Below are positions 4,035 to 60,125 of a stretch of 64,000 nucleotides of DNA, piece by piece. Each line of letters opens with the position of its first letter. The first letter of the stretch is position 1. The stretch is from Escherichia coli. GTDB taxonomy: Bacteria; Pseudomonadota; Gammaproteobacteria; Enterobacterales; Enterobacteriaceae. The stretch lies in the NCBI RefSeq assembly GCF_048403405.1, contig NZ_CP183129.1; one strand, 5' to 3'. The position numbers and the translations under genes are program-made. The notes below the pieces were generated by a model, which was not told where the DNA came from, searched no databases, and saw nothing but the letters and a program-made list of their open reading frames with translations.

Positions 4035-5667
4035 CCTACTGATAGCGATGATAATCGTTGCGCTAATCTGGCCTGCAACCGCGCTCAGAGCGGCAGTGAG
4101 CAAAACAACCTGGGCGGATGCACCGGCACGCGAGTTTGTGTTTGTCGAAAACAACTCAGACGACAACTTTTTCGTCACTCCTGGCGGGGCGCTGGATCCG
4201 CGCCTGACCGGTGCCAACCGCTGGACCGGTTTAAAATACAATGGTTCAGGAACCATCTATCAGCAAAGTCTCGGCTACATTGATAACGGTTACAACACCG
4301 GCCTTTATACCAACTGGAAGTTTGATATGTGGCTGGAAAATTCACCAGTTTCATCTCCTTTAACTGGCTTGCGCTGCATCAACTGGTACGCAGGGTGTAA
4401 TATGACCACCAGTCTTATCCTGCCGCAAACCACCGACGCCAGTGGATTTTATGGCGCGACGGTGACCAGCGGCGGCGCGAAGTGGATGCACGGCATGTTG
4501 TCAGACGCGTTTTACCAGTATCTGCAACAAATGCCCGTCGGCAGCAGCTTTACAATGACCATCAATGCCTGCCAGACCTCTGTGAACTATGACGCCAGTA
4601 GCGGCGCACGCTGTAAGGATCAGGCCTCCGGCAACTGGTATGTTCGCAACGTCACCCATACGAAAGCAGCAAATCTGCGGTTGATAAATACCCACTCGCT
4701 GGCGGAAGTATTTATCAACAGCGACGGAGTACCGACTCTGGGCGAAGGGAACGCCGACTGCCGGACGCAAACCATCGGCAGCCGTTCAGGATTAAGTTGT
4801 AAGATGGTTAACTATACCCTGCAAACAAACGGACTCAGCAACACCTCAATCCATATATTCCCGGCGATCGCCAACTCGTCGTTAGCCTCGGCCGTCGGGG
4901 CGTACGATATGCAGTTCAGTCTGAATGGCAGTTCATGGAAACCGGTGAGCAATACTGCCTATTACTACACCTTCAACGAGATGAAGAGCGCAGACTCGAT
5001 CTATGTTTTCTTCTCGAGCAACTTCTTTAAACAGATGGTGAACCTCGGGATCAGCGATATCAACACCAAAGATCTATTCAACTTTCGCTTTCAGAACACC
5101 ACATCACCGGAGTCTGGCTGGTATGAATTTTCTACCTCCAACACGCTGATTATCAAACCCCGTGATTTCAGCATCAGTATTATCTCCGATGAATATACTC
5201 AGACACCGTCGCGGGAGGGATATGTCGGCAGCGGCGAGTCGGCACTCGATTTCGGCTATATCGTAACCACCAGCGGTAAAACAGCTGCCGACGAAGTGCT
5301 GATCAAGGTGACCGGACCCGCGCAGGTGATTGGCGGGCGCTCCTATTGTGTCTTCAGCTCCGATGACGGTAAGGCGAAAGTACCGTTCCCGGCGACGCTT
5401 TCCTTTATTACCCGCAACGGAGCTACAAAAACCTACGATGCCGGGTGCGATGATAGCTGGCGGGATATGACCGATGCGCTGTGGCTGACCACACCGTGGA
5501 CTGATATCTCTGGCGAAGTGGGGCAGATGGATAAGACCACAGTCAAATTTTCGATTCCAATGGATAACGCCATTTCGCTGCGTACGGTAGATGATAACGG
5601 CTGGTTTGGCGAAGTCAGCGCTTCAGGAGAAATTCATGTTCAGGCGACGTGGCGTAACATTAACTAA
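4024..5667 (+). CDS. ecpD: Ecp pilus tip adhesin subunit
   Basis: 547-aa secreted protein, overlaps ecpC end; operon position. Confidence 0.88.
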
Positions 5668-14509: not shown

Positions 14510-15646
14510 TTATTTCAGTTTGGTCTGGAAAAATTGTTCGAACTTCGCGAAAGGTATTTTTCCGGCCACGTTATCGTACAGGTCCACGTGATTTGCCCCT
14601 GGTACCACCACCAACTCTTTGTCTTTACTGCCAACCGCCTTGTAAGCATCTTCAGCAAAATAGCGTGAATGTGCTTTCTCACCGGTCACAATCAGCGTCG
14701 GAATGGTGATTTCACTGGCGTAGCTCAACAGCGGCATATTCATAAATGACAGCGGCATCGTTGCCGTCCACGCCCCGGTAGAGTTAACGGAACGTTCGTG
14801 GAAGCCGCGCGGCATGCGATAGTAGTCAAAGAACTCTTTCAGTACCGGATGAGGATTTGCCGGCAGCGTTTCTGGCAGAATGCGCTCGCCCGCACTGACC
14901 TTGCCGTTGCTGTCGACATTAATATCATGACCACCGTGAGCGAACGTTCCGCTCTGCGCATCCTTCCAGCGCTGTTCATTCAGATATTGCAGAACGGCAC
15001 GACGGTCGGCGGTAGAATAACGGTCTTTGCCATCCCCCACACCATGACCCATCGCCCGGCTCATGTCATACATCACGCTGGTAGCTACCGCTTTAACGCG
15101 GGTATCCATCGCCACGTCGTTCAGCGCCATGCCGCCCCAGCCACAAATACCGAGCAGCCCGATACGGTTGCGATCTACCTCTTTTTGCAGCCCTAAGAAA
15201 TCCACCGCCGCGCTGAAATCTTCAGTGTTGATATCCGGTGAGGCGACGTTTCGCGGATAGCCGCCGCTTTCCCCGGTGTAAGAAGGATCGAACGCCAGGG
15301 TAACAAACCCTCGTTCCGCCAGCGTCTGCGCATACAAGCCGCTGGATTGCTCTTTCACCGCGCCAAATGGCCCACTGACCGCAATCGCCGCCAGCTTGCG
15401 ATCGCCACGGTCTTTAGGCAGGTAAAGATCGCCCACTAAGGTGATGCCATATCGGTTCGGGAACGAGACTTTACGGTGATCGACTTTCTGGCTCTCGGCG
15501 AACGTTTTATCCCATTTATCTGTCATGGACACAGGGGCATTAGGATTGGTTGAATCAGCATAACTCATTGTCGTGACTCCACTTAATGATGCGAAAAGCA
15601 GCATGGTCGGCATCGCGGTTTTTAGCGTGCGGGTGAAGGCTTTCAT
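14510..15646 (-). CDS. Secreted alpha/beta-hydrolase-fold protein (putative Cys/Ser hydrolase)
   Basis: N-terminal signal peptide; nucleophile-elbow-like GICGWGG motif; ends VVVPGANHVDLYD. Confidence 0.7.
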   Translation of the reverse strand: MKAFTRTLKTAMPTMLLFASLSGVTTMSYADSTNPNAPVSMTDKWDKTFAESQKVDHRKVSFPNRYGITLVGDLYLPKDRGDRKLAAIAVSGPFGAVKEQSSGLYAQTLAERGFVTLAFDPSYTGESGGYPRNVASPDINTEDFSAAVDFLGLQKEVDRNRIGLLGICGWGGMALNDVAMDTRVKAVATSVMYDMSRAMGHGVGDGKDRYSTADRRAVLQYLNEQRWKDAQSGTFAHGGHDINVDSNGKVSAGERILPETLPANPHPVLKEFFDYYRMPRGFHERSVNSTGAWTATMPLSFMNMPLLSYASEITIPTLIVTGEKAHSRYFAEDAYKAVGSKDKELVVVPGANHVDLYDNVAGKIPFAKFEQFFQTKLK

Positions 15647-15832
15647 AAAAATCCCCATAAAAAACAACAGAGAGATACAGGTTTCCGACGGACAACGCTG
15701 CGGTGCTTTACTTTGATGGGGTCATTATAGTGAGCAGAATTAGTGCTGATTAGGGGGCGATTAATGCTAAGATTAATACCATATTGTTATAAATTAATGT
15801 GGAGATTGCCGGCATGAAGGGGGGATGTTTCA

Positions 15833-16717
15833 ATGGCGAAAAGGGAGAACTACAACGAGCTGTACCTGTTTATGCAGGTGGTGCGAGAAGGCAGCTTTAC
15901 CGCAGCGGCTCAGCGGCTGGGTCTTGCTCAGTCAGGAGTCAGCCGTTCTGTTCGCGAGCTTGAAGAAAGGCTGGGTGTCCAGCTGCTAGTGCGCACCACG
16001 CGTAAACTGTCGCTGACACAAGCAGGCGAGCAGCTCTACCAGAAGACGGCATCTGGATTTGAAATGTTAGATCTTGGGCTTGCCACACTGGCGCACTATC
16101 GAGAGACGCCCTCCGGCACGGTGCGTATCAATGCCAGCCAGCACGCGATTGATAAATGCCTGCTGCCAAAGCTGGCGGTATTTAAACAGCGATATCCTGA
16201 TATCCGGCTTGAACTGATAAATGAGAGCCGGTTCGTCGATATCATCGAGGAAAGATTCGATGCAGGTGTCCGCCTGGGGCCTGAAGTCGGCCAGGGTATG
16301 GTCGCGGTACGCATCACGCCCGATATGGAGATGGCAATTGTGGGGACTCCGGAACATTTTCGTCGCTATGGTTTTCCGCAAACCCCGGCGGATTTAAAGG
16401 CGCATCCCTGTATCGCCTATCAGTTTGCCGACGGCAGCGTATACCAGTGGGAACTCAATCAGGATGATAAAAAAATCACTCATCGCCCTGAAGGGCAATG
16501 GGCCTTATCCGACAGCTATATGGAAGCAGAAGCCGCCCGGCTGGGCCTCGGATTGGCCTATGTTCCTGTTGAACTGGTCGCGGATGATTTAGAACACGGT
16601 AAGCTTATCAGGGTGTTGCAGCGTTACAGCCTGCGAATGGAGGGATTGTTTCTCTATTACCCTCATCGCAACGTCTCCCCCGCCCTGCGGATGGTCATTG
16701 ATACATTGAAAATCTGA
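15833..16717 (+). CDS. LysR-family transcriptional regulator
   Basis: 294 aa; N-terminal HTH FTAAAQRLGLAQSGVSRSVRELEERLGVQLLVRTTRKLSLTQAG; divergent from the hydrolase-MFS pair. Confidence 0.88.
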   Translation: MAKRENYNELYLFMQVVREGSFTAAAQRLGLAQSGVSRSVRELEERLGVQLLVRTTRKLSLTQAGEQLYQKTASGFEMLDLGLATLAHYRETPSGTVRINASQHAIDKCLLPKLAVFKQRYPDIRLELINESRFVDIIEERFDAGVRLGPEVGQGMVAVRITPDMEMAIVGTPEHFRRYGFPQTPADLKAHPCIAYQFADGSVYQWELNQDDKKITHRPEGQWALSDSYMEAEAARLGLGLAYVPVELVADDLEHGKLIRVLQRYSLRMEGLFLYYPHRNVSPALRMVIDTLKI

Positions 16718-16789
16718 ACGTTAACAACGACCGACTCTTTACTGTGCAATATTGTGTCAGGTAGTCCCTCTGCGTTCAATTCCAGGGTT

Positions 16790-17210
16790 TGTACTGACCC
16801 CAAAAAGTTGGACAGTTAAACACGAGGCATATAGGTCTGATTCCGATATTCAATTGGAGTCAGACCTTTTAATTTCAGGCTAATTCTTCTGCTGTTGTAG
16901 TATTCAATATATTCCGTAACAGCATCCTTCAGTTCGCTTATATTACTGAACTCATCAAGATAAAAACACTCCGACTTTAAGGTTCCAAAGAAACACTCCA
17001 CCACAGCATTATCCAGACAATTGCCTTTTCTGGACATGCTTTGTTTAATACCATGTTCTTTAAGGATATTTTGATATCTTCTCATACGATACTGCCATCC
17101 CTGGTCAGAGTGCAGAACAGGATGCTCGTGAGGATTAAGCTTTTTGAATGCCTGATCGAGCATATTCTCAACCATGTTCATCACTGGTCTTTCCGAAAGG
17201 CTGTAAGAAA
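16790..17210 (-). mobile_element. IS3-family (IS150-group-like) element, right part: orfB C-terminal fragment plus terminal repeat
   Basis: Minus-strand translation ...[47 protein letters not shown]...; end sequence tgtactgaccccaaaaagttggac; abuts IS26 at 17211. Confidence 0.8.
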
Positions 17211-18030
17211 GGCACTGTTGCAAATAGTCGGTGGTGATAAACTTATCATCCCCTTTTGCTGATGGAGCTGCACATGAACCCATTCAAAGGCCGGCATTTT
17301 CAGCGTGACATCATTCTGTGGGCCGTACGCTGGTACTGCAAATACGGCATCAGTTACCGTGAGCTGCAGGAGATGCTGGCTGAACGCGGAGTGAATGTCG
17401 ATCACTCCACGATTTACCGCTGGGTTCAGCGTTATGCGCCTGAAATGGAAAAACGGCTGCGCTGGTACTGGCGTAACCCTTCCGATCTTTGCCCGTGGCA
17501 CATGGATGAAACCTACGTGAAGGTCAATGGCCGCTGGGCGTATCTGTACCGGGCCGTCGACAGCCGGGGCCGCACTGTCGATTTTTATCTCTCCTCCCGT
17601 CGTAACAGCAAAGCTGCATACCGGTTTCTGGGTAAAATCCTCAACAACGTGAAGAAGTGGCAGATCCCACGATTCATCAACACGGATAAAGCGCCCGCCT
17701 ATGGTCGCGCGCTTGCTCTGCTCAAACGCGAAGGCCGGTGCCCGTCTGACGTTGAACACCGACAGATTAAGTACCGGAACAACGTGATTGAATGCGATCA
17801 TGGCAAACTGAAACGGATAATCAACGCCACGCTGGGATTTAAATCCATGAAGACGGCTTACGCCACCATCAAAGGTATTGAGGTGATGCGTGCACTACGC
17901 AAAGGCCAGGCCTCAGCATTTTATTATGGTGATCCCCTGGGCGAAATGCGCCTGGTAAGCAGAGTTTTTGAAATGTAAGGCCTTTGAATAAGACAAAAGG
18001 CTGCCTCATCGCTAACTTTGCAACAGTGCC
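17211..18030 (+). mobile_element. IS26 copy 1 (820 bp, complete)
   Basis: Terminal inverted repeats ggcactgttgcaaa at 17211 and its reverse complement ending at 18030; internal Tnp26 ORF. Confidence 0.95.
17271..17978 (+). CDS. tnpA: IS26 transposase Tnp26 (IS6 family)
   Basis: [57 protein letters not shown]... Confidence 0.95.
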   Translation, partial: HMNPFKGRHFQRDIILWAVRWYCKYGISYRELQEMLAERGVNVDHSTIYRWVQRYAPEMEKRLRWYWRNPSDLCPWHMDETYVKVNGRWAYLYRAVDSRGRTVDFYLSSRRNSKAAYRFLGKILNNVKKWQIPRFINTDKAPAYGRALALLKREGRCPSDVEHRQIKYRNNVIECDHGKLKRIINATLGFKSMKTAYATIKGIEVMRALRKGQASAFYYGDPLGEMRLVSRVFEM

Positions 18031-18743
18031 CTTGCTGGTAGTGGTTCTGTAGCCAGGTGGCTGAAGGTCTATGAAGAGCGCGGAGAAGCTGGTTTACGCG
18101 CGCTCAAGATTGGCACCAAAAGAAACATTGCAATATCAGTTGATCCAGAAAAAGCGGCATCAGCATTGGAGCTGTCAAAAGACCGACGCATTGAGGATCT
18201 TGAAAGGCAAGTTCGATTTCTTGAAACGCGGCTTATGTATCTAAAAAAGCTGAAAGCCTTAGCTCATCCCACGAAAAAGTAAAAGTACTCAACGAGCTAA
18301 GGCAGTTTTATCCTCTTGATGAGCTTCTCAGGGCTGCGGAGATACCGCGCAGTACGTTTTATTACCATCTAAAGGCTCTCAGCAAGCCTGACAAGTATGC
18401 GGACGTTAAAAAGCGTATTGGTGAGATTTATCACGAGAATAGAGGCCGATACGGATACCGTAGGGTAACGCTGTCTCTTCATCGAGAAGGGAAACAGATT
18501 AACCATAAAGCTGTTCAGCGCCTGATGGGAACCCTCTCACTTAAAGCAGCGATTAAGGTCAAGCGATACCGCTCTTACAGAGGAGAGGTAGGGCAAACCG
18601 CCCCTAATGTTCTCCAAAGAGATTTCAAGGCTACGCGGCCAAACGAGAAGTGGGTTACCGATGTTACTGAATTTGCAGTCAATGGGCGCAAGCTGTATTT
18701 GTCTCCAGTAATAGATCTCTTCAACAACGAAGTTATTTCTTAC
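18031..18743 (+). mobile_element. IS3-family element, internal part: orfA 3' region, A6G slippery site, orfB N-terminal fragment
   Basis: A-AAA-AAG frameshift heptamer at 18243-18249; orfB N-terminus ...[36 protein letters not shown], which continues in frame with the minus-strand fragment at 16816-17210. Confidence 0.8.
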
Positions 18744-19563
18744 GGCACTGTTGCAAAGTTAGCGATGAGGCAGCCTTTTGTCTTATTCAAAGGCCTTACA
18801 TTTCAAAAACTCTGCTTACCAGGCGCATTTCGCCCAGGGGATCACCATAATAAAATGCTGAGGCCTGGCCTTTGCGTAGTGCACGCATCACCTCAATACC
18901 TTTGATGGTGGCGTAAGCCGTCTTCATGGATTTAAATCCCAGCGTGGCGTTGATTATCCGTTTCAGTTTGCCATGATCGCATTCAATCACGTTGTTCCGG
19001 TACTTAATCTGTCGGTGTTCAACGTCAGACGGGCACCGGCCTTCGCGTTTGAGCAGAGCAAGCGCGCGACCATAGGCGGGCGCTTTATCCGTGTTGATGA
19101 ATCGTGGGATCTGCCACTTCTTCACGTTGTTGAGGATTTTACCCAGAAACCGGTATGCAGCTTTGCTGTTACGACGGGAGGAGAGATAAAAATCGACAGT
19201 GCGGCCCCGGCTGTCGACGGCCCGGTACAGATACGCCCAGCGGCCATTGACCTTCACGTAGGTTTCATCCATGTGCCACGGGCAAAGATCGGAAGGGTTA
19301 CGCCAGTACCAGCGCAGCCGTTTTTCCATTTCAGGCGCATAACGCTGAACCCAGCGGTAAATCGTGGAGTGATCGACATTCACTCCGCGTTCAGCCAGCA
19401 TCTCCTGCAGCTCACGGTAACTGATGCCGTATTTGCAGTACCAGCGTACGGCCCACAGAATGATGTCACGCTGAAAATGCCGGCCTTTGAATGGGTTCAT
19501 GTGCAGCTCCATCAGCAAAAGGGGATGATAAGTTTATCACCACCGACTATTTGCAACAGTGCC
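18744..19563 (-). mobile_element. IS26 copy 2 (820 bp, complete, inverted relative to copy 1)
   Basis: Identical Tnp26 ORF on minus strand; inverted repeats at 18744 and 19563. Confidence 0.95.
18796..19503 (-). CDS. tnpA: IS26 transposase Tnp26
   Basis: Protein identical to the copy at 17271-17978. Confidence 0.95.
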
Positions 19564-19803
19564 GATGATTTCAGATTTCATGACTTGAGACACACCTGGG
19601 CAAGTTGGCTGGTTCAAGCCGGTGTCCCGTTGTCAGTGTTACAGGAAATGGGAGGCTGGGAGTCTATCGAAATGGTTCGTCGATATGCTCACCTCGCACC
19701 TAATCACCTTACCGAACACGCACGGCAAATAGACTCGATCCTGAACCCATCGGTCCCAAATTTGTCCCAGTCAAAAAATAAGGAAGGTACTAATGATGTG
19801 TAA
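19564..19803 (+). pseudogene. P4-like tyrosine integrase, C-terminal about 80 codons (5' part replaced by IS26)
   Basis: ...[47 protein letters not shown]... carries the catalytic H-x-x-R and Y region; stop lies 14 bp from the tRNA-Thr 3' end. Confidence 0.8.
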
Positions 19804-19817
19804 CTTATTGATTTAAA

Positions 19818-19893
19818 TGGTGCCGATAATAGGAGTCGAACCTACGACCTTCGCATTACGAATGCGCTGCTCTACCAACTGAGCTATATCGGC
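19818..19893 (-). tRNA. thrW: tRNA-Thr (anticodon CGU)
   Basis: Reverse complement reads GCCGATATAGCTCAGTTGGTAGAGCAGCGCATTCGTAATGCGAAGGTCGTAGGTTCGACTCCTATTATCGGCACCA. Confidence 0.95.
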
Positions 19894-20007
19894 CCTGAAA
19901 GGACATGTTCACGAACGTGAATCACGGTGGACAAGGTTAAAACTAACCGGGCGATGCGTCAATGGCCTTGTGAATCAAATGGCTACTTTTGCATCACCCG
20001 GTTTTAT

Positions 20008-21261
20008 TTACGCACGAATGGTGTAATCACCAATGCCGATCCACTTGTAAGTGGTCAGTGCTTCCAGCCCCATTGGGCCACGCGCGTGGAGTTTTTGTGT
20101 GCTTACCGCCACTTCCGCACCCAGACCAAACTGGCCGCCGTCGGTAAAACGCGTAGAGGCGTTAACGTAAACAGCGGACGAATCCACTTCGTTAACAAAA
20201 CGCTGGGCGTTGCGCATATCGCGGGTCAGGATCGCATCGGAGTGTTGTGTGCCGTGTTCACGAATATGGGCGATGGCATCGTCAAGATCGCTGACGATTT
20301 TGACGTTCAAATCTAATGACAGAAACTCATCGTCATACTCTTCGGCTTTAACAGCAACCACCTTCGCAGGGCCTGCCTGCAACTGCGCCAGTGCAGCTGC
20401 ATCTGCGTGTAATGTCACGCCGCTTTCCGCCATTTGTTTGCTTAATGCGGGCAGGAAGCTATCGGCGATGTTTTTATTCACCAGCAACGTTTCAACCGTA
20501 TTACATGTGCTCGGTCGCTGAGTTTTCGCGTTGACGATCACTTTTAATGCTTCAGCGATCTCTACACTTTCATCAACGTAAATATGGCATACGCCTATAC
20601 CACCTGTGATCACCGGGATCGTTGACTGTTCGCGGCACAGTTTATGCAGGCCAGCGCCACCACGCGGGATCAGCATGTCGATGTATTTATCCATACGCAG
20701 CATTTCACTGACCAGCGCACGGTCAGGATTATCAATCGCCTGCACGGCACCCGCCGGTAAGCCGCAGGATTTCAGGGCGTCCTGAATCACCGCCACCGTT
20801 GCAGCGTTAGTGCGGCAGGTTTCTTTACCGCCACGCAGGACCACCGCGTTACCCGTTTTCAGGCACAGCGAAGCGACATCAACCGTCACGTTCGGCCGCG
20901 CTTCATAAATCACGCCAATCACGCCCAGCGGTACGCGACGACGCTCAAGACGCAGGCCGCTGTCCAGTACGCCGCCATCGATTACCTGCCCCACCGGATC
21001 GGCAAGGTTACACACCTGGCGCACATCGTCAGCAATGCCTTTCAGCCGTGCGGGCGTCAGTGCCAGACGGTCAAGCATCGCTTCGCTAAGGCCATTGGCA
21101 CGCGCGTCAGCAACATCCTGGGCGTTAGCGTTGAGGATGATTTCGCTTTGTGCTTCCAGTTCATCGGCGATTTTTTCCAGCACACGATTTTTTTCGCGGC
21201 TGGAGAGTTGCGCTAATTTATACGAGGCTTGCTTTGCGGCAATGCCCATTTGTTCCAGCAT
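20008..21261 (-). CDS. proA: Gamma-glutamyl phosphate reductase
   Basis: 417-aa [41 protein letters not shown]... Confidence 0.97.
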
Positions 21262-25552: not shown

Positions 25553-26011
25553 TTAGCGACCGGAGATTGGCGGGACGAATACGACGCCCATATCCCACGG
25601 TTGTTCGATCCAGGTATCTTGCGGGATATCAACAACATAATCATCAACCAGCGGACGACCAGCCGGTTTTGCGAAGATGGTGACAAAGTGCGCTTTTGGA
25701 TACATTTCGCGGATTGCCACTGCAGTACCACCGGTATCCACCAGGTCATCAATAACAATGAAGCCTTCGCCATCGCCTTCTGCGCGTTTCAGCACTTTAA
25801 GCTCGCGCTGGTTGTCGTGATCGTAGCTGGAAATACAAACGGTATCGACATGACGAATACCCAGTTCACGCGCCAGTAACGCACTCGGTACCAGACCGCC
25901 ACGGCTTACGGCAATAATGCCTTTCCATTGTTCAGAAGGCATCAGTCGGCTTGCGAGTTTACGTGCATGGATCTGCAACATGTCCCAGGTGACGATGTAT
26001 TTTTCGCTCAT
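25553..26011 (-). CDS. gpt: Xanthine-guanine phosphoribosyltransferase
   Basis: 152-aa [54 protein letters not shown]... Confidence 0.97.
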
Positions 26012-26271: not shown

Positions 26272-27729
26272 GTGTCTGAACTGTCTCAATTATCTCCACA
26301 GCCGCTGTGGGATATTTTTGCCAAAATCTGTTCTATTCCTCACCCGTCCTATCATGAAGAGCAACTCGCTGAATACATTGTTGGTTGGGCAAAAGAGAAA
26401 GGTTTCCATGTCGAACGCGATCAGGTAGGTAATATCCTGATTCGTAAACCTGCTACCGCAGGTATGGAAAATCGTAAACCGGTCGTCTTGCAGGCCCACC
26501 TCGATATGGTGCCGCAGAAAAATAACGACACCGTGCATGACTTCACGAAAGATCCTATCCAGCCTTATATTGATGGCGAATGGGTTAAAGCGCGCGGCAC
26601 CACGCTGGGTGCGGATAACGGTATTGGTATGGCCTCTGCACTGGCGGTTCTGGCTGACGAAAACGTGGTTCACGGCCCGCTGGAAGTGCTGCTGACCATG
26701 ACCGAAGAAGCCGGTATGGATGGTGCTTTTGGCTTACAGAGCAACTGGTTGCAGGCTGATATTCTGATTAACACCGACTCCGAAGAAGAAGGTGAAATCT
26801 ACATGGGTTGCGCGGGGGGTATCGACTTTACCTCCAACCTGCATTTAGATCGTGAAGCGGTTCCAGCTGGCTTTGAAACCTTCAAGTTAACCTTAAAAGG
26901 CCTGAAAGGCGGTCACTCCGGCGGTGAAATCCACGTTGGCCTGGGTAATGCCAACAAACTGCTGGTGCGCTTCCTGGCGGGTCATGCAGAAGAACTGGAC
27001 CTGCGCCTTATCGATTTCAACGGCGGCACACTGCGTAACGCCATCCCGCGTGAAGCCTTTGCGACCATTGCTGTCGCAGCTGATAAAGTCGACGCACTGA
27101 AATCTCTGGTGAATACCTATCAGGAGATCCTGAAAAACGAGCTGGCAGAGAAAGAGAAAAATCTGGCATTGCTGCTGGACTCTGTTGCGAACGATAAAGC
27201 TGCCCTGATTGCGAATTCTCGCGATACCTTTATTCGTCTGCTGAACGCCACCCCGAACGGTGTGATCCGCAACTCCGACGTGGCAAAAGGTGTGGTCGAA
27301 ACCTCCCTGAACGTCGGTGTGGTGACCATGACTGACAATAACGTAGAAATTCACTGCCTGATCCGTTCTCTGATCGACAGCGGTAAAGACTACGTGGTAA
27401 GCATGCTGGATTCGCTGGGTAAACTGGCTGGCGCGAAAACCGAAGCGAAAGGCGCATATCCTGGCTGGCAGCCGGACGCTAATTCTCCGGTGATGCATCT
27501 GGTACGTGAAACTTATCAGCGTCTGTTCAACAAGACGCCGAACATCCAGATTATCCACGCGGGCCTGGAATGTGGTCTGTTCAAAAAACCGTATCCGGAA
27601 ATGGACATGGTTTCTATCGGGCCAACAATCACCGGTCCACACTCTCCGGATGAGCAAGTTCACATCGAAAGCGTAGGTCATTACTGGACACTGCTGACTG
27701 AACTGCTGAAAGAAATTCCGGCGAAGTAA
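26272..27729 (+). CDS. pepD: Cytosol nonspecific dipeptidase (aminoacyl-histidine dipeptidase) PepD
   Basis: 485-aa ORF from a GTG start: SELSQLSPQPLWDIFAKICSIPHPSYHEEQ... Confidence 0.96.
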   Translation: MSELSQLSPQPLWDIFAKICSIPHPSYHEEQLAEYIVGWAKEKGFHVERDQVGNILIRKPATAGMENRKPVVLQAHLDMVPQKNNDTVHDFTKDPIQPYIDGEWVKARGTTLGADNGIGMASALAVLADENVVHGPLEVLLTMTEEAGMDGAFGLQSNWLQADILINTDSEEEGEIYMGCAGGIDFTSNLHLDREAVPAGFETFKLTLKGLKGGHSGGEIHVGLGNANKLLVRFLAGHAEELDLRLIDFNGGTLRNAIPREAFATIAVAADKVDALKSLVNTYQEILKNELAEKEKNLALLLDSVANDKAALIANSRDTFIRLLNATPNGVIRNSDVAKGVVETSLNVGVVTMTDNNVEIHCLIRSLIDSGKDYVVSMLDSLGKLAGAKTEAKGAYPGWQPDANSPVMHLVRETYQRLFNKTPNIQIIHAGLECGLFKKPYPEMDMVSIGPTITGPHSPDEQVHIESVGHYWTLLTELLKEIPAK

Positions 27730-27740
27730 TTACAATAATG

Positions 27741-27760
27741 TCCACGCCTGCGGGCGTGGA
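27741..27760 (+). terminator. Putative pepD terminator hairpin
   Basis: Perfect inverted repeat tccacgcc-tgcg-ggcgtgga 12 bp after the pepD stop. Confidence 0.5.
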
Positions 27761-27776
27761 CTACTGTTTGAAGCCA

Positions 27777-28019
27777 ATGGCTATCTATATCGAAATAACA
27801 AAACATTATGAAACTCATGAAAAGGTCGCATATTTATATAGCTGCGACCATATTTCATGGGGAGAATTTCTGATCACCAAAGAAGGTTTTGCGCTGGAAT
27901 CCGTGAAAGAACTTAAGGGTGAAAAGCAGAAATTTTATATGTTCAGAGCCTGGGGCAAAGTCAGGAGAGCATACTTAACCACGGGAGAATTCCCCCAGGA
28001 AACATGTTACGCCGCTTAA
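27777..28019 (+). CDS. Hypothetical small protein (80 aa)
   Basis: ORF MAIYIEITKHYETHEKVAYLYSCDHISWGEF... starting just after the pepD terminator; no family recognised. Confidence 0.35.
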   Translation: MAIYIEITKHYETHEKVAYLYSCDHISWGEFLITKEGFALESVKELKGEKQKFYMFRAWGKVRRAYLTTGEFPQETCYAA

Positions 28020-28035
28020 AGTCAGAGTTATTTTT

Positions 28036-28545
28036 TCATGCATTTACCATTTTGGCATTACGCCTGCGCCACATGGCAATGGCGGCAGCCACTAATGCCA
28101 GTTCCAGTAAAAACGACCAGTGTAATAAAAAATTGAGCCACCACGGATGATGTACCGCCGTAATATGAAAGAGTGCAAAGGGTTGGTTAACGAAAGGCAT
28201 CAACCACCAGATATCACCGACCAGCGTATCGAGTAATAAATGCACGATACCATTCAGGCAAAACACCACGCCCAACCACGCCGGAAGTTTATTCTTCGCA
28301 ATTGCGGCCCAGACTAATGTCGCCGCCAGCAGAGCAAACCATAATAATGGCCAATGAGACGGGTAAAGATGATGATGTCGTTGCCCGTTATCAACCAGAT
28401 AGCACCAAAAAAGATCAAAATCGGGCGCAACGGACCCAACTAAGCCAATAACCATCGCCCAGCGCGCATGACGAGCAATCAGTGGCAAGCGTTTCATTAA
28501 AGTACAAGTTATTAAATAACCAGCCGGAAGATGACCGATAAACAT
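28036..28545 (-). CDS. DUF457/YdjM-like membrane-bound metal-dependent hydrolase
   Basis: MFIGHLPAGYL... and PDFDLF motifs resembling E. coli YdjM; multiple TM segments; His-rich. Confidence 0.55.
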   Translation of the reverse strand: MFIGHLPAGYLITCTLMKRLPLIARHARWAMVIGLVGSVAPDFDLFWCYLVDNGQRHHHLYPSHWPLLWFALLAATLVWAAIAKNKLPAWLGVVFCLNGIVHLLLDTLVGDIWWLMPFVNQPFALFHITAVHHPWWLNFLLHWSFLLELALVAAAIAMWRRRNAKMVNA

Positions 28546-28606
28546 GACTATTCCTTTCGTTTTTCCCGCCGCTTTCACATAGAAAACGGCGGGAGACATT
28601 CCTCAA

Positions 28607-29221
28607 TTACACAGCGACAAAAGCCATCCCTGTAAACGTTCGTCGCGGGTTGCCACGTTCAATCTGGTGATGGAACATTCGCCGCTGCGATTTCAGCGCC
28701 GCGCTATTTTTCTGTTGCTGCTGCTCCAGCTTCCAGGCAATCAGCAATCGCGCCAGCCGTTTGTTAGCATGCTGGCTGCGCTCTGACTGAACCTTCACGC
28801 TAATCCCGGATGCCAAATGCGTGGCGCGTACCGCCGAGTCGGTTTTATTGACATGTTGACCGCCCGGCCCCGACGAACGCAGCGTCTCATACCGGATCGC
28901 ATCGGATTGCTCCTGCTCATCAGCGGTAAAACGCCCAATGCCCAGAAACCAGTTTTTGCGCCCATGATGAGGCCGATACGGACTCGGACAAATCCACTGA
29001 ATAGTGCCGCACCAACTTTCGCTTAATGCCCATGCATTATCGCCATCCAGAGAAACCAGCGCTGAACGCAGCGTGTCAGAGTAGCGGCCCGTTTCTGTTT
29101 CCAGCACCGTTACCGCGACGTCTTGTCGGGTAGCTTCTTTAATCAGCCTGTCCAGTGCCTTTTTCACTGCGAGACAACATTCTTCCGGCCCCTGCGCTGA
29201 GGAGAGTTGTAGCAAGATCAT
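28607..29221 (-). CDS. prfH: Peptide chain release factor homolog PrfH
   Basis: GGQ motif ([28 protein letters not shown]); start at [11 protein letters not shown]; overlaps rtcB2 stop. Confidence 0.85.
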
Positions 29222-30369
29222 CCTTTTTTCCCTCCACTGTTTTTGAGCGTTAGCACCGGACGCAGTCGCGCGACAGGAATAATTAAACCGGCTTGCACCA
29301 GACATTGCACCACACTTTCAGCCGATTTATAGGCTTGTGGCGCTTCTTCGAAGATGAGTTGTTTATCGCGACAAATCACCCGGCTGCCAAGTTCAGTACG
29401 CGAGAGTTGCGTCGCCGTGTAATTCGCTGCCAGACGCCCTTTACACTCGGTGCGCCCCCATTTACGCCCTGCCCCATGCGCCAGCGAGTGGAGCGTTTTT
29501 TCGTTCGCAACAGGTTTAACCAGCCAGGAGTAATCACCGCGTGAACCGGGAATAATCACCAGACCGTTGTCATCCGGCGTGGCACCTTTACGATGCAACC
29601 AGCCCTGTTGATCGCCGATTTGGCACGCGCTAACAAAGTTATGCGCCACATCCAGAACCGGACTTCCGGTGGCCTTAACTTGTTGCATTATGCGCAAAGC
29701 GATCATCTGGCGATTAATACGCGCAAACGCCAGCGCATCGTCATGTTCCGCAATATACCGTAGCGCGTCGTCACTGCCTTCAGGCAAACCATGATGCGAA
29801 AACGAGGCAATATGCCGCTGTAAAATAGACTGCCCCAACCCCCTCGAGCCGCTATGAACCAGCAGTTGCAGATGCTGCGCATCCAGACCTGCCAGTGCAA
29901 ACAGTTCAGCGTCGATGATTTCATCAACTTGTTGCAGTTCTGCAAAGTGGTTTCCGCCACCGATAGAGCCAAGCGAGCTGCGCCACGAATGCTGTGCAAA
30001 TGCTGACGGCAGGTTTTCCTCCAGCCAGCTTTCTTCAGCAACGTCATCCAAAGCTGATAATCGCTTTTCAAACTTATCGGCGTTGTATTTACGAGCGAGA
30101 ATATCTGTTTGCCATAGCGCCATGCCGCAGCCGATATCATTGCCGACCAGTGCCGGGTAAAAACGGCCTGCGGAGAAGAACGCTGCGCCAATCGGGTAGC
30201 CGCGTCCGGGATGTAAATCTGGCATCCCTACTACGCGCTGCATGTTGGGTAAATTTGCCGTGGTGTGTAATTGTTGGATCGCTAAACTCTCGATCCACAG
30301 GTCATCAGATGCGATGGTAAATACCGCATCGGATAAGGGACGAATATATTTGCCCATGTACCATTCCAT
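29218..30369 (-). CDS. rtcB: RtcB-family RNA ligase (RtcB2, PrfH-associated)
   Basis: 383-aa ORF with RtcB-type metal-binding His/Cys residues ([31 protein letters not shown]). Confidence 0.85.
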
Positions 30370-30675
30370 TTATACTCGTCATACTTCAAGTTGCATGTAC
30401 TGCGGCTGCGTTCGTTCACCCCAGTCACTTACTTATGTAAGCTCCTGGGGATTCACTCGCTTGTCGCCTTCCTGCAACTCGAATTATTTAGAGTATATAA
30501 ATATTAAAAATCAGGAAATGGCAGACGAATCCAGGGCAAGAAAAAAAGAATTAATCCTGGAAAGGTCTGCAAAGAGTCATTGATAAAGGATTTGTCATGA
30601 TTTACCTCCTTGCAGTTTGTGGAATAAGAAAACGCGCACATACTAGGCGGGTGTTATTTTCATTGCAAGCTGGAT

Positions 30676-31128
30676 TTAATGTTGCGGTTTATATCGCATA
30701 GAAAAATTAGTAAACCACGCTCCCCTGCATTCAACGCGCTGCTGCTTAACTGTCTGAAAACCATAACGTTCAAAAAAGGGTTTTGCGGTTATGCTGGCAT
30801 CTACCGTTAGTTCGGATTCAGACTTAATCAATGGTTTTAACAAAGCGCTGGCAACCCCACAGCGGGTGTATTCAGGGTCAACAAATAACATATCGATATA
30901 GTGTTCAACGCGGGAAATAAAACCAACCGGTTGTGCATTAATGATCGCAACCCACACTTGTGATTTCGCGAGTTTCTCCTTCCAGCGAGATTCGTCAATC
31001 TGCGCCCAGGCGGCAATTTGTTGTGGTGAATAATGCTGACTGGCGGTCATCGTAACCGCTCTAAGGAAAATAGCGCATAGTTGCTGAAAATCGCCAGGCT
31101 GATAGTTTCTTATTTGTATGTTATTCAT
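30676..31128 (-). CDS. yafP: GNAT family acetyltransferase YafP
   Basis: 150-aa ORF MNNIQIRNYQPGDFQQLCAIFLRAV... Confidence 0.9.
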   Translation of the reverse strand: MNNIQIRNYQPGDFQQLCAIFLRAVTMTASQHYSPQQIAAWAQIDESRWKEKLAKSQVWVAIINAQPVGFISRVEHYIDMLFVDPEYTRCGVASALLKPLIKSESELTVDASITAKPFFERYGFQTVKQQRVECRGAWFTNFSMRYKPQH

Positions 31129-31137
31129 AATATAAAT

Positions 31138-31536
31138 TCAAAAACGCATGCGAAACGCTTCTGCCATTTTTCCAATTTTATGCATTTGGTTGTTATCTCG
31201 AGCCAGTTTATGAGGTTCAGGCTTCAGAATGGCAATGAGCAACCATGCTTGCTCATCAAACGCACCCTGACAATATACCAAATGCGCTTCGTCATTCGTT
31301 CTGCTGAATTGGCACAACTGTGGCGGAAATGGATTATTCACATTTGCCAGATGAATATGAGCAACTCGCTCAAATTTGATTAATGGCCAGGTAAACGAGT
31401 CGTCGTAGAGTGCATCGCGACCAAATATATCTGGCAAAATACCGTCACGCTTATAGGAAATAAAATCCGCCGTTAACGCATCAAGTTCCTCTGCTGTAAG
31501 TTGCAGGCGAATAAGTTTTGTTTTGAATACCCGCAT
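31138..31536 (-). CDS. yafO: Ribosome-dependent mRNA interferase toxin YafO
   Basis: 132-aa ORF MRVFKTKLIRLQLTAEELDALTADFISYKRDG... Confidence 0.9.
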   Translation of the reverse strand: MRVFKTKLIRLQLTAEELDALTADFISYKRDGILPDIFGRDALYDDSFTWPLIKFERVAHIHLANVNNPFPPQLCQFSRTNDEAHLVYCQGAFDEQAWLLIAILKPEPHKLARDNNQMHKIGKMAEAFRMRF

Positions 31537-31538
31537 CC

Positions 31539-31832
31539 TTATTCCTTAAAGTCATTGAAATCATCATCCGTCATATCATTAAGATATTGTTCAGCGCGGC
31601 GTGTAATTTCCTCTAATCTTGCAGCACTCGGACGGAAGCGCGCCTTTATGGGCTTTTTCTCCTCTTGTTCAGCAAGCATGTCCATTAACGCTTCGAATGC
31701 GCTGGCACTTAAGAGATATCCTGCGGGGCGATTATTAGAAAGAACCGCAACCGGTTGATCAATAAAGTATTTAGCTGGGTTTTTACGTAACTCAGTGATA
31801 TTGACCGATTTTTCAGCGAGAATTCGATGCAT
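31539..31832 (-). CDS. yafN: Antitoxin YafN
   Basis: 97-aa ORF MHRILAEKSVNITELRKNPAKYF...; 2-bp gap to yafO. Confidence 0.9.
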   Translation of the reverse strand: MHRILAEKSVNITELRKNPAKYFIDQPVAVLSNNRPAGYLLSASAFEALMDMLAEQEEKKPIKARFRPSAARLEEITRRAEQYLNDMTDDDFNDFKE

Positions 31833-31883
31833 ACAGTGATCCCCTCATAATAATGCACACCAGAATAGACATAATAGTATACA

Positions 31884-32939
31884 TCATAATCCCAGCACCA
31901 GTTGTCTTTCCATTTGCGGGTCAAGCAACGTCACATGCAGCCCCACCAGTCGCACACCGCGCCCGCCGCGGCGTTCATCCCAGGTTTTACGCGCGGTGGC
32001 GATTAGATCAGCTTTATTCAGCCGCGGCCAGACGTGCTCCTGAGTAGTTTGCTGAAAATCGTCGAACTTTAATTTCACCCCCTGGCGAGCAATCAGTAAA
32101 TCAGGTTTTACTTTTGCCAGACGACGTTCAAGTTCCGGATACAGCCGCTCGATAATCGCTTCACATTCAGACCAGTGATGAATATCTTCCGCCATCGTGC
32201 GTTCCACGCCGACAGATTTTCGCAACCGTTCGCTGTTAACGTCGCGCTCGTCAATCCCCTGACTACGCTCCCACAAAATGCGGCCAAATTTGCCAAAACG
32301 TTTGAGCAGAGTCACCAGATCACACTTTTGCACATCACCGCAGGTCCGCAGCCCCATCGCTTCCAGTTTTGCCGCCGAGACTTTGCCGACGCCGGGGATT
32401 TTTGCCAGCGGTAAGGTTTGTAAAAATGTCGGAACTTCTGCCGGCGTAATCACAAACTGGCCGTTGGGTTTATTCATGTCGGAGGCGATTTTGGCGAGAA
32501 ACTTTACTGGTGCCACGCCCGCAGACGCCGTCAGTTGCAGCTCGTTGAAGATTGTCTGGCGGATTTCCTGGGCGATGAGGGTCGCAGAACCGTGGCAATG
32601 GACGCTATCAGTGACATCGAGATAGGCTTCATCCAGTGACAACGGTTCAATACGCGAGGTGTAGCGCGAGAAGATTTCACGGATATGATTTGAGGCTTCT
32701 TTGTAGGCGTCAAAGCGCCCCGGAAGCAAGGTGAGATGTGGGCATAATTTGAGCGCCATCCCTGTCGGCATAGCGCTACGTACGCCAAATTTACGCGCGG
32801 GATAATTGGCGGTGCTGATCACTCCCCGACGTTCGCGGCTGCCGCCAATAGCAATAGGGATATCGCGCAGGGCGGGATTGTCGCGCATCTCCACCGCTGC
32901 GAAAAAGCAGTCCATATCCACATGAATGATTTTACGCAT
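31884..32939 (-). CDS. dinB: DNA polymerase IV (Y-family translesion polymerase)
   Basis: 351-aa [36 protein letters not shown]... Confidence 0.97.
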
Positions 32940-32955
32940 TGCTCACCTCTCAACA

Positions 32956-32971
32956 CTGGTAAAGTATACAG
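32956..32971 (-). promoter_or_regulatory. LexA (SOS) box upstream of dinB
   Basis: cactggtaaagtatacagtg; contains CTG-N10-CAG palindrome 17 bp upstream of the dinB start. Confidence 0.8.
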
Positions 32972-33009
32972 TGATTTCAGGGTTTGAGAAATGCGTAAAG
33001 ATTCAGCAT

Positions 33010-33740
33010 CTAGCGCGTTCGCTGCGAATGCACCTGCTGCTTATCCAGCTTTTGCACCAGCGGCTGCACCACTTTATCCCCATGCTGACCAAAGTATTGA
33101 TACAGCGTATCGGACGCACTTTTGGTCAGCACCATAATCTCAATGCGTCGGTTGCCCGCGCTTTGCGGATTTTTCGCGTCCAGCAGCATCTGGTCCGCCA
33201 TCGCGCTCACCTGCATCACTTTATCTTCCGGCATTCCGGCCTCTTCCAGCACCCGACGAGCCGAAAGCGCGCGATCGCCCGAAAGGTTCCAGTTGTTGTA
33301 GATATTGTTTTTGTAGGCCATCGCATCGGTATGCCCGGTAATAATAATTTTGTTATCGAGCGAGTCGAACACTGGCGCGAGCTCCACCAGCAAAGTTTTA
33401 AAGAACGGCATAATCTGTGCGCTGCCGCGTTCAAACATATTGCGGTTCTGGTCATCTTTAATCAGCACGCGCAGTCCCTGGGGAACAATCTCCATCTCCA
33501 GATTCGCTTCCATATGTGCATCACGGGCAATGGTGTTGATACTGGTCGCCAGCTCGCCAAGCTCAGTAGCGGATTTCTTCTTCAGCAGCGCCGTTTTCTC
33601 ATTGACGTCACGCGCTTTTTTCTCCGTCTCTTCCGGCACCGCCACGGTGGCAGGTTTTGGCGGATGAGACAGGCTGATTTTATTTAACGGCGACAACCCG
33701 CCGCCATTGAAAATCGACTGCCCGTGCAGCGCGGCGATAA
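33010..33740 (-). pseudogene. lafU: Lateral flagellar motor protein LafU (MotB-like), N-terminally truncated: Flag-2 remnant
   Basis: C-terminal OmpA-like domain present (...IIITGHTDAMAYKNNIYNNWNLSGDRALSARRVLEEAGMPEDKV...NRRIEIMVL); no N-terminal TM anchor. Confidence 0.7.
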
Positions 33741-35479
33741 TGCTTTCACGCTCGGATTTACTGACGCTGTTGACAATCAACTTTATCGTCGTCACCAAAG
33801 GGGCCGAGCGTATTTCCGAGGTTTCTGCCCGCTTTACCCTGGACGCGATGCCCGGCAAACAGATGGCGATTGACGCCGATCTTAACGCCGGGTTGATCAA
33901 CCAGGCGCAGGCGCAAACCCGGCGTAAAGATGTTGCCAGCGAGGCCGATTTCTACGGCGCAATGGACGGGGCATCGAAGTTTGTGCGCGGGGATGCCATC
34001 GCCGGGATGATGATTCTGGCGATCAACCTGATCGGCGGCGTCTGTATCGGGATCTTCAAATACAACCTGAGCGCCGATGCCGCCTTCCAGCAATATGTGC
34101 TGATGACCATCGGCGACGGACTGGTGGCGCAGATCCCGTCCCTGCTGCTTTCCACCGCGGCGGCGATTATCGTCACCCGCGTCAGCGACAACGGCGATAT
34201 TGCCCATGACGTGCGTAACCAGTTGCTGGCAAGCCCGTCGGTGCTCTACACCGCCACCGGGATCATGTTTGTGCTGGCGGTTGTGCCGGGGATGCCGCAT
34301 CTGCCGTTTTTGCTGTTCAGCGCCCTGCTTGGTTTTACCGGCTGGCGGATGAGCAAACGCCCGCAGGCGGCGGAGGCGGAAGAGAAAAGCCTCGAAACAC
34401 TGACCCGAACCATCACCGAAACCAGCGAGCAACAGGTCAGTTGGGAAACTATTCCGCTGATCGAGCCCATCAGCTTAAGCCTCGGCTACAAGCTGGTGGC
34501 GCTGGTGGACAAAGTACAGGGTAACCCGCTCACCCAGCGGATTCGCGGCGTGCGGCAGGTGATTTCTGACGGTAACGGCGTGCTGCTGCCGGAGATCCGC
34601 ATTCGGGAAAACTTCCGCCTCAAGCCCAGCCAGTACGCCATTTTCATCAATGGCATTAAGGCTGATGAAGCGGATATTCCGGCGGATAAACTGATGGCCC
34701 TGCCCTCCAGCGAAACCTACGGCGAGATTGACGGCGTGCTGGGGAACGACCCGGCGTACGGGATGCCGGTGACCTGGATCCAGCCCGCGCAGAAAGCGAA
34801 AGCGCTGAATATGGGGTATCAGGTGATCGACAGCGCCAGCGTGATTGCCACCCATGTGAACAAGATTGTCCGCAGCTATATTCCTGATTTGTTTAACTAT
34901 GATGACATCACGCAGTTGCATAACCGTTTGTCGTCGATGGCACCGCGCCTGGCGGAAGATTTGAGCGCGGCGCTCAATTACAGCCAATTGCTGAAAGTGT
35001 ACCGGGCGCTGCTGACCGAAGGCGTTTCCCTGCGCGATATTGTCACCATCGCCACCGTGCTGGTCGCCAGTAGCACAGTGACCAAAGATCATATCCTGCT
35101 GGCGGCCGATGTGCGCCTGGCATTGCGGCGCAGCATTACCCATCCGTTCGTTCGCAAGCAGGAGCTGACGGTGTATACGCTGAATAATGAGCTGGAAAAT
35201 CTGCTCACCAACGTGGTGAATCAGGCGCAACAGGGCGGGAAAGTGATGCTCGACAGCGTGCCGGTCGATCCGAATATGCTCAACCAGTTCCAGAGTACGA
35301 TGCCGCAGGTAAAAGAGCAGATGAAAGCGGCGGGGAAAGACCCGGTGCTGCTGGTGCCGCCGCAGTTGCGTCCTTTGCTGGCGCGTTATGCAAGGTTGTT
35401 TGCGCCGGGGCTGCATGTGCTGTCGTATAACGAAGTGCCGGACGAGCTGGAGTTGAAGATTATGGGGGAGTTGAGTTGA
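33707..35479 (+). pseudogene. lfhA: Lateral flagellar export protein LfhA (FlhA-like), N-terminally truncated: Flag-2 remnant
   Basis: FlhA-like from ...NFIVVTKGAERISEVSARFTLDAMPGKQMAIDADLNAG onward; lacks the first roughly 100 residues. Confidence 0.7.
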
Positions 35480-58823: not shown

Positions 58824-60125
58824 ATGATAATCACGGAGCAGAATATGCCGGAAGAGAAACTACAGACGCTTTCATTGCAGGTCATTAACGGCAGTGAGCT
58901 GGAAAGCGGGCGGGCGGCGCGCTGTCTGTTCACACAGCAGGGAAATGTCGGCCATGGCCCCGAATGCCACTGGTCGGTACAGGATCGTCAGCAGAGCATT
59001 CCGGCTCAGGCTTTTACCGTTATCCTGCACGATGGCACATTTTGTCTGCGCCCGCAGACGGCACAACTGTGGCTGAACCAAGCAAAAGTCACAGCAACAT
59101 CAGACCTGATACAGCTGCGCCAGGGCGATGAGATCCAGATAGGGCGTCTGATGGTGAGGGTTCATCTGAACCGGGGAGATATCCCCCATTACGATGAGGA
59201 AATGGCCACTCCCGAAACCATCGTCACCAATCGCGATATGCTCACGGATACCCTGCTGTCAACGGAGGGTGCGCCACACTATCCGGGAATGACTCACCGG
59301 CATCAGCTTGCAGACACCGTGGTAAACGGTTTTTCTGCCGATCCACTCCAGGCTCTTCAGTCCGAAAGCCTGATTACCACGGGCGATCCGCTTTCAGGCA
59401 TTGCGGCTGTCCGGCCATCGGCACCGCTGTCCGATCCGGCAAGTAATGGGGGGATCAATACGCCGTTTATGGATCTGCCGCCCATTTATGCCAGCCCCGG
59501 CGATCGTAATGATGACGTCTCTGTGGCAGAAATGGCGCAACGCCACCTTGCGGTCACCCCCTTACTGCGCGGTCTCGGCGGTTCGCTTACCGTGAGCAAT
59601 TCCGACGATGCGGATGATTTTCTGGAAGAGGCCGGACGAACGTTACAGGCCGCAATAAAAGGTCTGCTCGATTTGCAGCAACAGCGTAACAGCCTCTCAG
59701 ACAAACATTTGCGCCCGCTGGAAGATAACCCGCTGCGCCTGAACATGGATTACGCCACCGCGCTCGACGTGATGTTTGCCGAAGGTAAAAGTCCGGTACA
59801 TCTGGCGGCTCCCGCCGCTGTCAGTGAAAGCCTGCGCAATGTCCGCCACCACGAAGAAGCTAACCGGGCAGCGATTGTGGAGTCGCTTCGTGTCCTGCTG
59901 GATGCTTTCTCACCACAAAATCTGCTGCGCCGCTTTGTGCAGTACCGCCGCAGCCATGAACTGCGCCAGCCGCTGGATGATGCCGGAGCATGGCAAATGT
60001 ACAGCCATTATTACGAAGAACTGGCCTCCGATCGCCAGCAGGGGTTTGAGATGCTGTTTAACGAGGTCTACGCCCAGGTCTATGACCGGGTGCTTCGTGA
60101 AAAACAGCGGGAGCCGGAAGCATGA
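58824..60125 (+). CDS. tagH: FHA-domain T6SS-associated protein (TagH/Fha-like)
   Basis: N-terminal FHA-like fold region (...QGNVGHGPECHWSVQDRQ...LRQGDEIQIGRLMVRVH). Confidence 0.7.
   Translation: MIITEQNMPEEKLQTLSLQVINGSELESGRAARCLFTQQGNVGHGPECHWSVQDRQQSIPAQAFTVILHDGTFCLRPQTAQLWLNQAKVTATSDLIQLRQGDEIQIGRLMVRVHLNRGDIPHYDEEMATPETIVTNRDMLTDTLLSTEGAPHYPGMTHRHQLADTVVNGFSADPLQALQSESLITTGDPLSGIAAVRPSAPLSDPASNGGINTPFMDLPPIYASPGDRNDDVSVAEMAQRHLAVTPLLRGLGGSLTVSNSDDADDFLEEAGRTLQAAIKGLLDLQQQRNSLSDKHLRPLEDNPLRLNMDYATALDVMFAEGKSPVHLAAPAAVSESLRNVRHHEEANRAAIVESLRVLLDAFSPQNLLRRFVQYRRSHELRQPLDDAGAWQMYSHYYEELASDRQQGFEMLFNEVYAQVYDRVLREKQREPEA

Follow-up and report, generated by a model that had tools for sequence, protein, structure and literature searches.

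The closest described counterpart of the site studied here is the operator of dinB (dinP; b0231) in Escherichia coli K-12 MG1655, where ATCACTGTATACTTTACCAGTGTTG has been listed as the LexA motif upstream of the UV-induced gene (PMC3009722). LexA binding at K-12 dinB is credited to Fernandez de Henestrosa 2000 and Wade 2005 in the citations given by PMC2814082. The operator mutation dinBo-21, located in the predicted LexA site, brought DinB to the level seen in lexA51(Def), 9-fold over the vector control (PMC4330395, PMC2877720). After ciprofloxacin, the log2 fold change was 3.13 for dinB and approximately 2 for yafN, yafO, and yafP (PMC11002266). The basal level of Pol IV was reported as approximately 250 molecules per cell, with approximately 10-fold more once induced (PMC6590174, PMC3105422).

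The dinP gene of Salmonella enterica (STM14_0369) is likewise preceded by a single, similarly placed LexA box (15 bp from the ATG) and is damage inducible, with an 11.3-fold response to nalidixic acid that is LexA/RecA dependent (PMC8072944). The Salmonella box differs in being closer to consensus, with a heterology index (HI) of 6.8 on the matrix of PMC8072944, which is not the matrix used in the present work. For the scores reported below, a Berg-von Hippel HI matrix was derived from 17 E. coli LexA sites (PMC3009722, Table 4) with dinB excluded; this matrix differs from the published Lewis matrix, so that published HIs cannot be set directly beside its values. The operators of sulA, umuDC, recN, and sbmC resemble that of dinB in having a CTG-N10-CAG motif that overlaps the promoter and in being derepressed by RecA-stimulated LexA cleavage, but their HIs were 0.6 to 5.7 when each site was left out in turn, compared to 11.8 for dinB. 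From the higher HI of dinB, looser repression with a raised basal level would be expected, and a comparatively weak operator, as scored here, fits the high basal level of Pol IV that has been reported.

The DNA analyzed was a 64-kb stretch of E. coli sequence, referred to as the window. From −69 to +38, the dinB region of the window is identical to that of K-12 MG1655; the 20-mer operator, the Shine-Dalgarno sequence, and both predicted promoter hexamers (−35 and −10) are inside this interval, while the three substitutions found in the 180 nt compared all fall upstream of it, within the lafU 3′ end. Since no difference was found across this interval, the site was deduced to be the K-12 dinB operator. 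The earlier note on this DNA had described the site as known biology, and this description was apt given that the K-12 operator is identical base for base and already published. The two loci also share the four-gene operon and the lafU and lfhA remnants upstream. They differ in that lafU is annotated as intact in the window and rtcB-prfH is intact downstream of yafP, whereas these are pseudogenes in K-12. The 20-bp imperfect palindrome CACTGTATACTTTACCAGTG is therefore proposed to be the LexA operator of the dinB promoter, with a probability of approximately 0.97, its binding and regulation being known from the identical K-12 sequence. No evidence contradicting this assignment was met.

The dinB promoter and its operon

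Direct reading of the plus strand placed CTG at 32956-32958 and CAG at 32969-32971, so that both half-sites of the CTG-N10-CAG palindrome claimed previously at 32956-32971 are present. The full 20-mer occupies 32973..32954 on the minus strand, with the core 16-mer at 32956-32971, and reads cactggtaaagtatacagtg on the plus strand (32954-32973). On the dinB strand, CACTGTATACTTTACCAGTG is followed by TTGAGAGGTGAGCA and then by the ATG (32939). The outer arms, CACTG and CAGTG, form a perfect inverted repeat, and the spacing from CTG to CAG is exactly 10 bp. The gap to the dinB ATG is 16 nt from the 16-mer and 14 nt from the 20-mer; the distance of 17 bp given before is acceptable when counted from position 32956 to the A of the ATG.

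The promoter region is limited by lafU (33010..33795, minus strand), a Flag-2 remnant identified from the RefSeq annotation of identical DNA and from the open reading frame (ORF) list, the stop codon of which is 70 nt before the dinB ATG. A consensus scan of this lafU-dinB spacer gave a single promoter-like arrangement, TTCTCA-16-TATACT, with 9 of 12 consensus matches. The predicted −35 hexamer, TTCTCA (32990..32985, minus strand), is a poor element. The predicted −10 hexamer, TATACT (32968..32963, minus strand), falls within the LexA box, as is usual for a LexA-repressed promoter. Judging from the position of this predicted −10 hexamer, the dinB transcription start should be at approximately 32956-32960, also inside the box; no published start was found for dinB in the literature surveyed. 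A Shine-Dalgarno core, GAGG (32946..32949, minus strand), was read from the sequence 6 nt before the ATG.

Downstream of the box are four co-oriented genes on the minus strand, all encoding proteins that scored above the NCBIfam equivalog cutoffs. These are dinB (32939..31884), which is present in the ORF list and encodes DNA polymerase IV of 351 amino acids (NF002677, 546.6 bits against a cutoff of 256); yafN (31832..31539), encoding an antitoxin of 97 amino acids (NF007300, 196.7 bits); yafO (31536..31138), encoding an mRNA interferase toxin of 132 amino acids (NF007377, 243.3 bits); and yafP (31128..30676), the last gene of the operon, encoding a GNAT N-acetyltransferase of 150 amino acids (NF007338, 320 bits). 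The same genes, together with lafU, are given in the RefSeq annotation of identical DNA, and the reading of the locus as dinB-yafN-yafO-yafP was thus confirmed by the NCBIfam matches, by this annotation, and by the identity to K-12. The 3.35 kb around the box was 100% identical to E. coli TUM14771 and 96 to 98% identical to most other E. coli strains. Approximately 52% of complete E. coli genomes covered at least 80% of this 3.35-kb query, and most of the remaining genomes were without yafN-yafO (31138-31832), with dinB fused to yafP. This polymorphism between four-gene and two-gene operons has already been described, with about half of E. coli genomes wholly lacking yafNO (PMC3105422).

The absence of yafNO from so many genomes is one of the observations favoring the possibility that the box controls dinB alone, with yafN, yafO, and yafP induced from their own promoters rather than as part of one SOS unit. 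Two further observations point in the same direction, namely, that yafNO has its own mapped promoter, which is autoregulated by YafN (PMC2814082), and that a promoter-like match at 31912..31883 overlaps the dinB stop codon. However, this proximal promoter was found not to be SOS responsive, the putative LexA box reported there did not mediate induction, and the induction of yafNO mRNA by mitomycin C was abolished by deletion of the dinB promoter (PMC2814082). The second box was also not evident in our own scan, as no credible LexA-like site was found in the dinB-yafN spacer (best HI, 23.7). The spacers between the four genes are only 51, 2, and 9 nt in length, and no convincing terminator was found within the operon, where 4 terminator-like sites were counted compared to 3.2 in shuffled sequences. 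Moreover, the four messages rise together after ciprofloxacin (PMC11002266), and YafP-YFP was induced by mitomycin C in strain CFT073 (PMC3105422). Independent control of the three downstream genes is accordingly considered improbable. The earlier expectation that dinB-yafN-yafO-yafP is SOS induced from this box was upheld by the published responses of the identical K-12 sequence to UV, mitomycin C, and ciprofloxacin, with the qualification that the operon is not driven solely from the dinB promoter since yafNO has a promoter of its own. Induction of yafP via the dinB promoter is probable from the operon structure and the co-induction.

Conservation and score of the operator

Within E. coli, a 34-nt segment centered on the box was found essentially exactly in 4,454 of 5,426 complete genomes. 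Another 754 genomes (approximately 14%) carried a one-base variant, ...CAGTA, in which A replaces G at the last base of the 20-mer (window position 32954). This variant operator, found for example in ST131, shares the promoter, the position, and 19 of 20 bases with the ...CAGTG type of the window and K-12; it differs in that the final A restores the consensus ...CAGTA arm and gives an HI of 10.05 compared to 12.25. It was also carried by an O25:H4 genome together with the two-gene dinB-yafP operon. A different kind of change was observed in E. coli MS 21-1 (NZ_CP146670.1; locus 2524-4446), where the ISL3-family element ISEc53 interrupts the dinB LexA box and is flanked by an 8-bp target duplication, ATACTTTA. 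The element carries a gene of the ClbS/DfsB family, and its insertion separates dinB from the −35 element and from the left operator half.

For a comparison across species, one genome per species was taken and scanned for the conserved N-terminal codons of DinB, which gave 120 loci, of which 119 were usable. A box with an HI of 13 or less was present within 200 nt upstream of dinB in 105 of the 119 species (88%), mostly 8 to 40 nt from the start, whereas only 4 of 2,320 control windows of 200 nt from the same loci (0.17%) reached this score. The 14 loci without a box included the non-gammaproteobacterial Prevotellaceae, Verrucomicrobia, Lentisphaeria, Bacteriovorax, and Spartobacteria. In non-gammaproteobacterial genomes, the LexA motif, where present, is expected to differ. 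An ATG-anchored alignment of 35 upstream regions from Enterobacterales showed that no block other than CTGTATACTT..CAGT was conserved at 90% or more. The flanks were essentially unalignable apart from a G-rich ribosome-binding site and a weak −35-like element, which was moderately conserved at the same spacing as TTCTCA, TTGAAA, or TTGAGC. Among the Enterobacterales sampled, the K-12-type box of E. coli was the weakest-scoring dinB operator (HI of 12.25 compared to 3.7 to 11.4).

Theoretically, this block could be conserved only as a core promoter, comprising the −10 element and the start, with the SOS induction of dinB not proceeding via LexA at this site. In agreement with this, TATACT is within the box, CTGTATACTT is the most conserved part in the enterics, and dinB has also been reported to be under RpoS control (PMC3105422, PMC5999292). 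However, both palindromic arms (CTG...CAG[T]) are conserved, and these are needed by neither a sigma-70 nor a sigma-S promoter. Furthermore, boxes from Vibrio, Shewanella, Colwellia, and others retain the arms and the 10-nt spacing around a different inner sequence (e.g., TACTGTTTTTATATACAGTA), which argues that a repressor site, and not the −10 element alone, is under selection. The derepression to the lexA(Def) level by a mutation in the predicted LexA site (PMC4330395) makes a core promoter role alone very improbable.

The bare CTG-N10-CAG pattern was matched 34 times in the window, or approximately once per 1.9 kb. Dinucleotide shuffles predicted 15 matches, while 36.5 were expected from the observed frequencies of the CTG and CAG trinucleotides; the count reaches 34 because these trinucleotides are themselves overrepresented in E. 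coli. A match to the pattern alone is thus uninformative, and it is the position, the full-length score, and the conservation that make the case. The match at dinB has the most A+T-rich spacer (8 of 10) of the 34. A LexA motif scan, which had been suggested as a check, was run with the HI matrix and gave 11.8 for the dinB 20-mer by leave-one-out and 12.25 with the symmetrized matrix. These values are within the range of the 17 known sites, each left out in turn (0.6 to 12.9), and are also under the conventional threshold of approximately 15 for a LexA-repressed gene (PMC11002266), although the threshold was set on another matrix and this comparison is only indicative.

The dinB box ranked as the fourth-best distinct site among approximately 64,000 window positions and is, by sequence score alone, only moderately distinctive. 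The three higher-scoring 20-mers (HI, 9.6 to 10.4) are all within coding sequence and are probably chance matches, the dinB box being the only promoter site among the four. They are located at 18691-18710 in an IS150 transposase fragment between two IS26 copies, at 58920-58939 inside tagH, and at 25825-25844 inside gpt, the last being without the CAG. The first had been considered as an upstream site of an "ash family" gene, but this was rejected on the basis of its location in the transposase fragment. The proposal that the dinB box is itself just a common copy of CTG-N10-CAG without a regulatory role, which the pattern counts and the three better-scoring sites might favor, is effectively refuted already, as only approximately 0.003 sites this good are expected in the 70-nt spacer, the site is identical to the K-12 operator, a box is found at dinB far more often than in the control windows, the box is the only highly conserved upstream block in Enterobacterales, and an operator-constitutive mutation exists (PMC4330395).

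The rtcB-prfH leader and other features of the window

Beyond yafP, the minus strand carries rtcB (30357..29218) and prfH (29221..28607). Passages in PMC9223846 and PMC9304027 describe this pair as protecting E. coli from colicin E3 and as rescuing and repairing damaged ribosomes. The order dinB-(yafP)-rtcB-prfH-pepD-gpt-frsA is kept in Klebsiella, Salmonella, Kosakonia, Cronobacter, and the window (27000-33000), indicating that the SOS-controlled dinB unit has long had the ribosome-repair operon as a same-strand neighbor. The spacer between yafP and rtcB is 318 nt in length and contains a conserved leader plus an ERIC-type repeat.

The leader (30620-30500, minus strand) is possibly of more interest than the dinB box. 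It preceded rtcB at each of the 12 loci compared (E. coli, Klebsiella, Salmonella, Kosakonia, Cronobacter, Pragia, Entomomonas, Pseudomonas, and four further contigs) despite differing upstream neighbor genes. Its features, all on the minus strand, begin with a strong ribosome-binding site, CUGCAA(A)GGAGG (Shine-Dalgarno sequence at 30610..30605), followed by an ORF, MTNPLSMTLCRPFQD (30598..30551), which has 13 to 19 codons across the loci and a common end of Leu-Cys-Arg, four codons, and a stop (L-C-R-x-x-x-x-stop). A hairpin (30570..30521) has its 5′ arm within the last codons of this ORF. In the window, the pairing is between GCAGAC (30570-30565) and GTCTGC (30526-30521) and between CCAGG (30560-30556) and CCTGG (30535-30531). 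On the 3′ side of the hairpin is a conserved UGCCA and then, in most loci, a U-rich stretch (30510..30506 in the window).

In the 12-sequence alignment, the outer helix was 98.6% paired with one covarying pair (G-C in 7, A-U in 4, and G-U in 1), and three pairs of the inner helix were changed on both sides. The covariation score was 0.244 compared to 0.169 in shuffles, and none of 500 shuffles reached it; twelve sequences are, however, too few for firm covariation. Directly before the leader ribosome-binding site, CUGCAAAG has an exact complement, CUUUGCAG, within the ORF, but it is invariant and so uninformative on covariation. The hairpin is not a canonical intrinsic terminator because the U-run does not directly abut the stem. 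From its sequence, the leader looks like a leader-peptide cis-regulator and may be a translation-sensing attenuator. It is hypothesized that ribosome stalling at the leader stop codon or close to it would mask the 5′ arm of the hairpin and that rtcB-prfH would then be expressed. The PrfH-centered papers surveyed made no mention of the leader, and the full-text matches were reviews that touch on PrfH only in passing.

Between the leader and rtcB is a 124-nt repeat of the ERIC/IRU type (30498..30375, minus strand), which gave a subthreshold match to Rfam V_AS5 (49 bits against a gathering score of 96) and folds as a very stable hairpin (z = −6.85). It is dispersed (median, 5 copies per E. coli genome) and contains the ERIC primer sequences. 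The repeat was absent upstream of rtcB in seven other genera, and an Rfam scan of the seven rtcB-prfH loci from other genera gave no matches. A metagenome scan with the repeat motif yielded 1 true locus among 120, the others being chance matches. The repeat shares 13 nt with 16S rRNA (1481-1493), where A1493 is the base just before the colicin E3 cut; this alignment was not significant by itself (10 of 500 shuffles). The idea that the repeat is a mimic of the 16S damage site beside rtcB-prfH was rejected on the basis of its absence in the seven other genera, its dispersal, the ERIC primer sequences, and the nonsignificant alignment, and the 13-nt identity is most plausibly coincidental. Immediately ahead of the annotated rtcB ATG, 12 nt (30358-30369, minus strand) read ATGGAATGGTAC, with ATGGATTGGTAT in other genera, and are conserved, in frame, and translated as M-E/D-W-Y. 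RtcB2 may therefore begin four codons earlier than annotated.

Elsewhere, the window is colinear with strain TUM14771 only from 19800 onward. The region at 16789-19799 has two inverted copies of IS26 (transposase genes at 17256-17978, plus strand, and 18796-19518, minus strand) flanking IS150-type transposase fragments, and it adjoins a tRNA-Thr(CGU) gene (19818-19893) and an integrase remnant. Among the complete E. coli genomes of the collection, none had at least 80% of 15500-21000 in one place. Upstream of dinB, lfhA (33707-35479, plus strand), which is FlhA-like and N-terminally truncated, and lafU (33010-33795, minus strand) are remnants of the Flag-2 lateral flagellar cluster. Strain MS 21-1 and one other strain retain motA and a FliA-type sigma factor gene beside lafU.

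Damage control of Pol IV

For the LexA operator proposed here, the following sequence of events is envisaged. In the undamaged cell, a LexA dimer would occupy the two CTG/CAG half-sites. Since the box covers TATACT and the likely start, bound LexA would compete with RNA polymerase, and the transcription of dinB-yafN-yafO-yafP would be lowered but not abolished. The exact transcription start is inferred, as is the view that LexA represses by occluding RNA polymerase, which is taken from the geometry. Upon DNA damage, RecA filaments on single-stranded DNA would promote the self-cleavage of LexA, the operator would be emptied, and Pol IV and the cotranscribed yafN, yafO, and yafP messages would rise several-fold.

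The link between damage and Pol IV has been established in E. coli K-12 for decades, and its confirmation here mainly validates the reading of the locus. What is added is the finding that a CTG-N10-CAG match is by itself uninformative in E. coli DNA, together with a quantified cross-species footprint of the operator, the allele frequencies of a natural variant of it, and an example of its disruption by an insertion sequence. The site is the switch from DNA damage to the error-prone polymerase IV and, via cotranscription, to the YafN-YafO toxin-antitoxin pair and YafP, and this link is relevant to stress-induced mutagenesis and the evolution of antibiotic resistance. A tentative suggestion, which we regard as possible rather than probable, is that the variants of the dinB operator (the weak ...CAGTG form, the ...CAGTA form, and the box split by an insertion sequence) are a tuning point for the supply of mutations between lineages. 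If these variants alter the occupancy by LexA, then E. coli lineages would differ heritably in their basal and induced levels of Pol IV and likewise in stress-induced mutagenesis.
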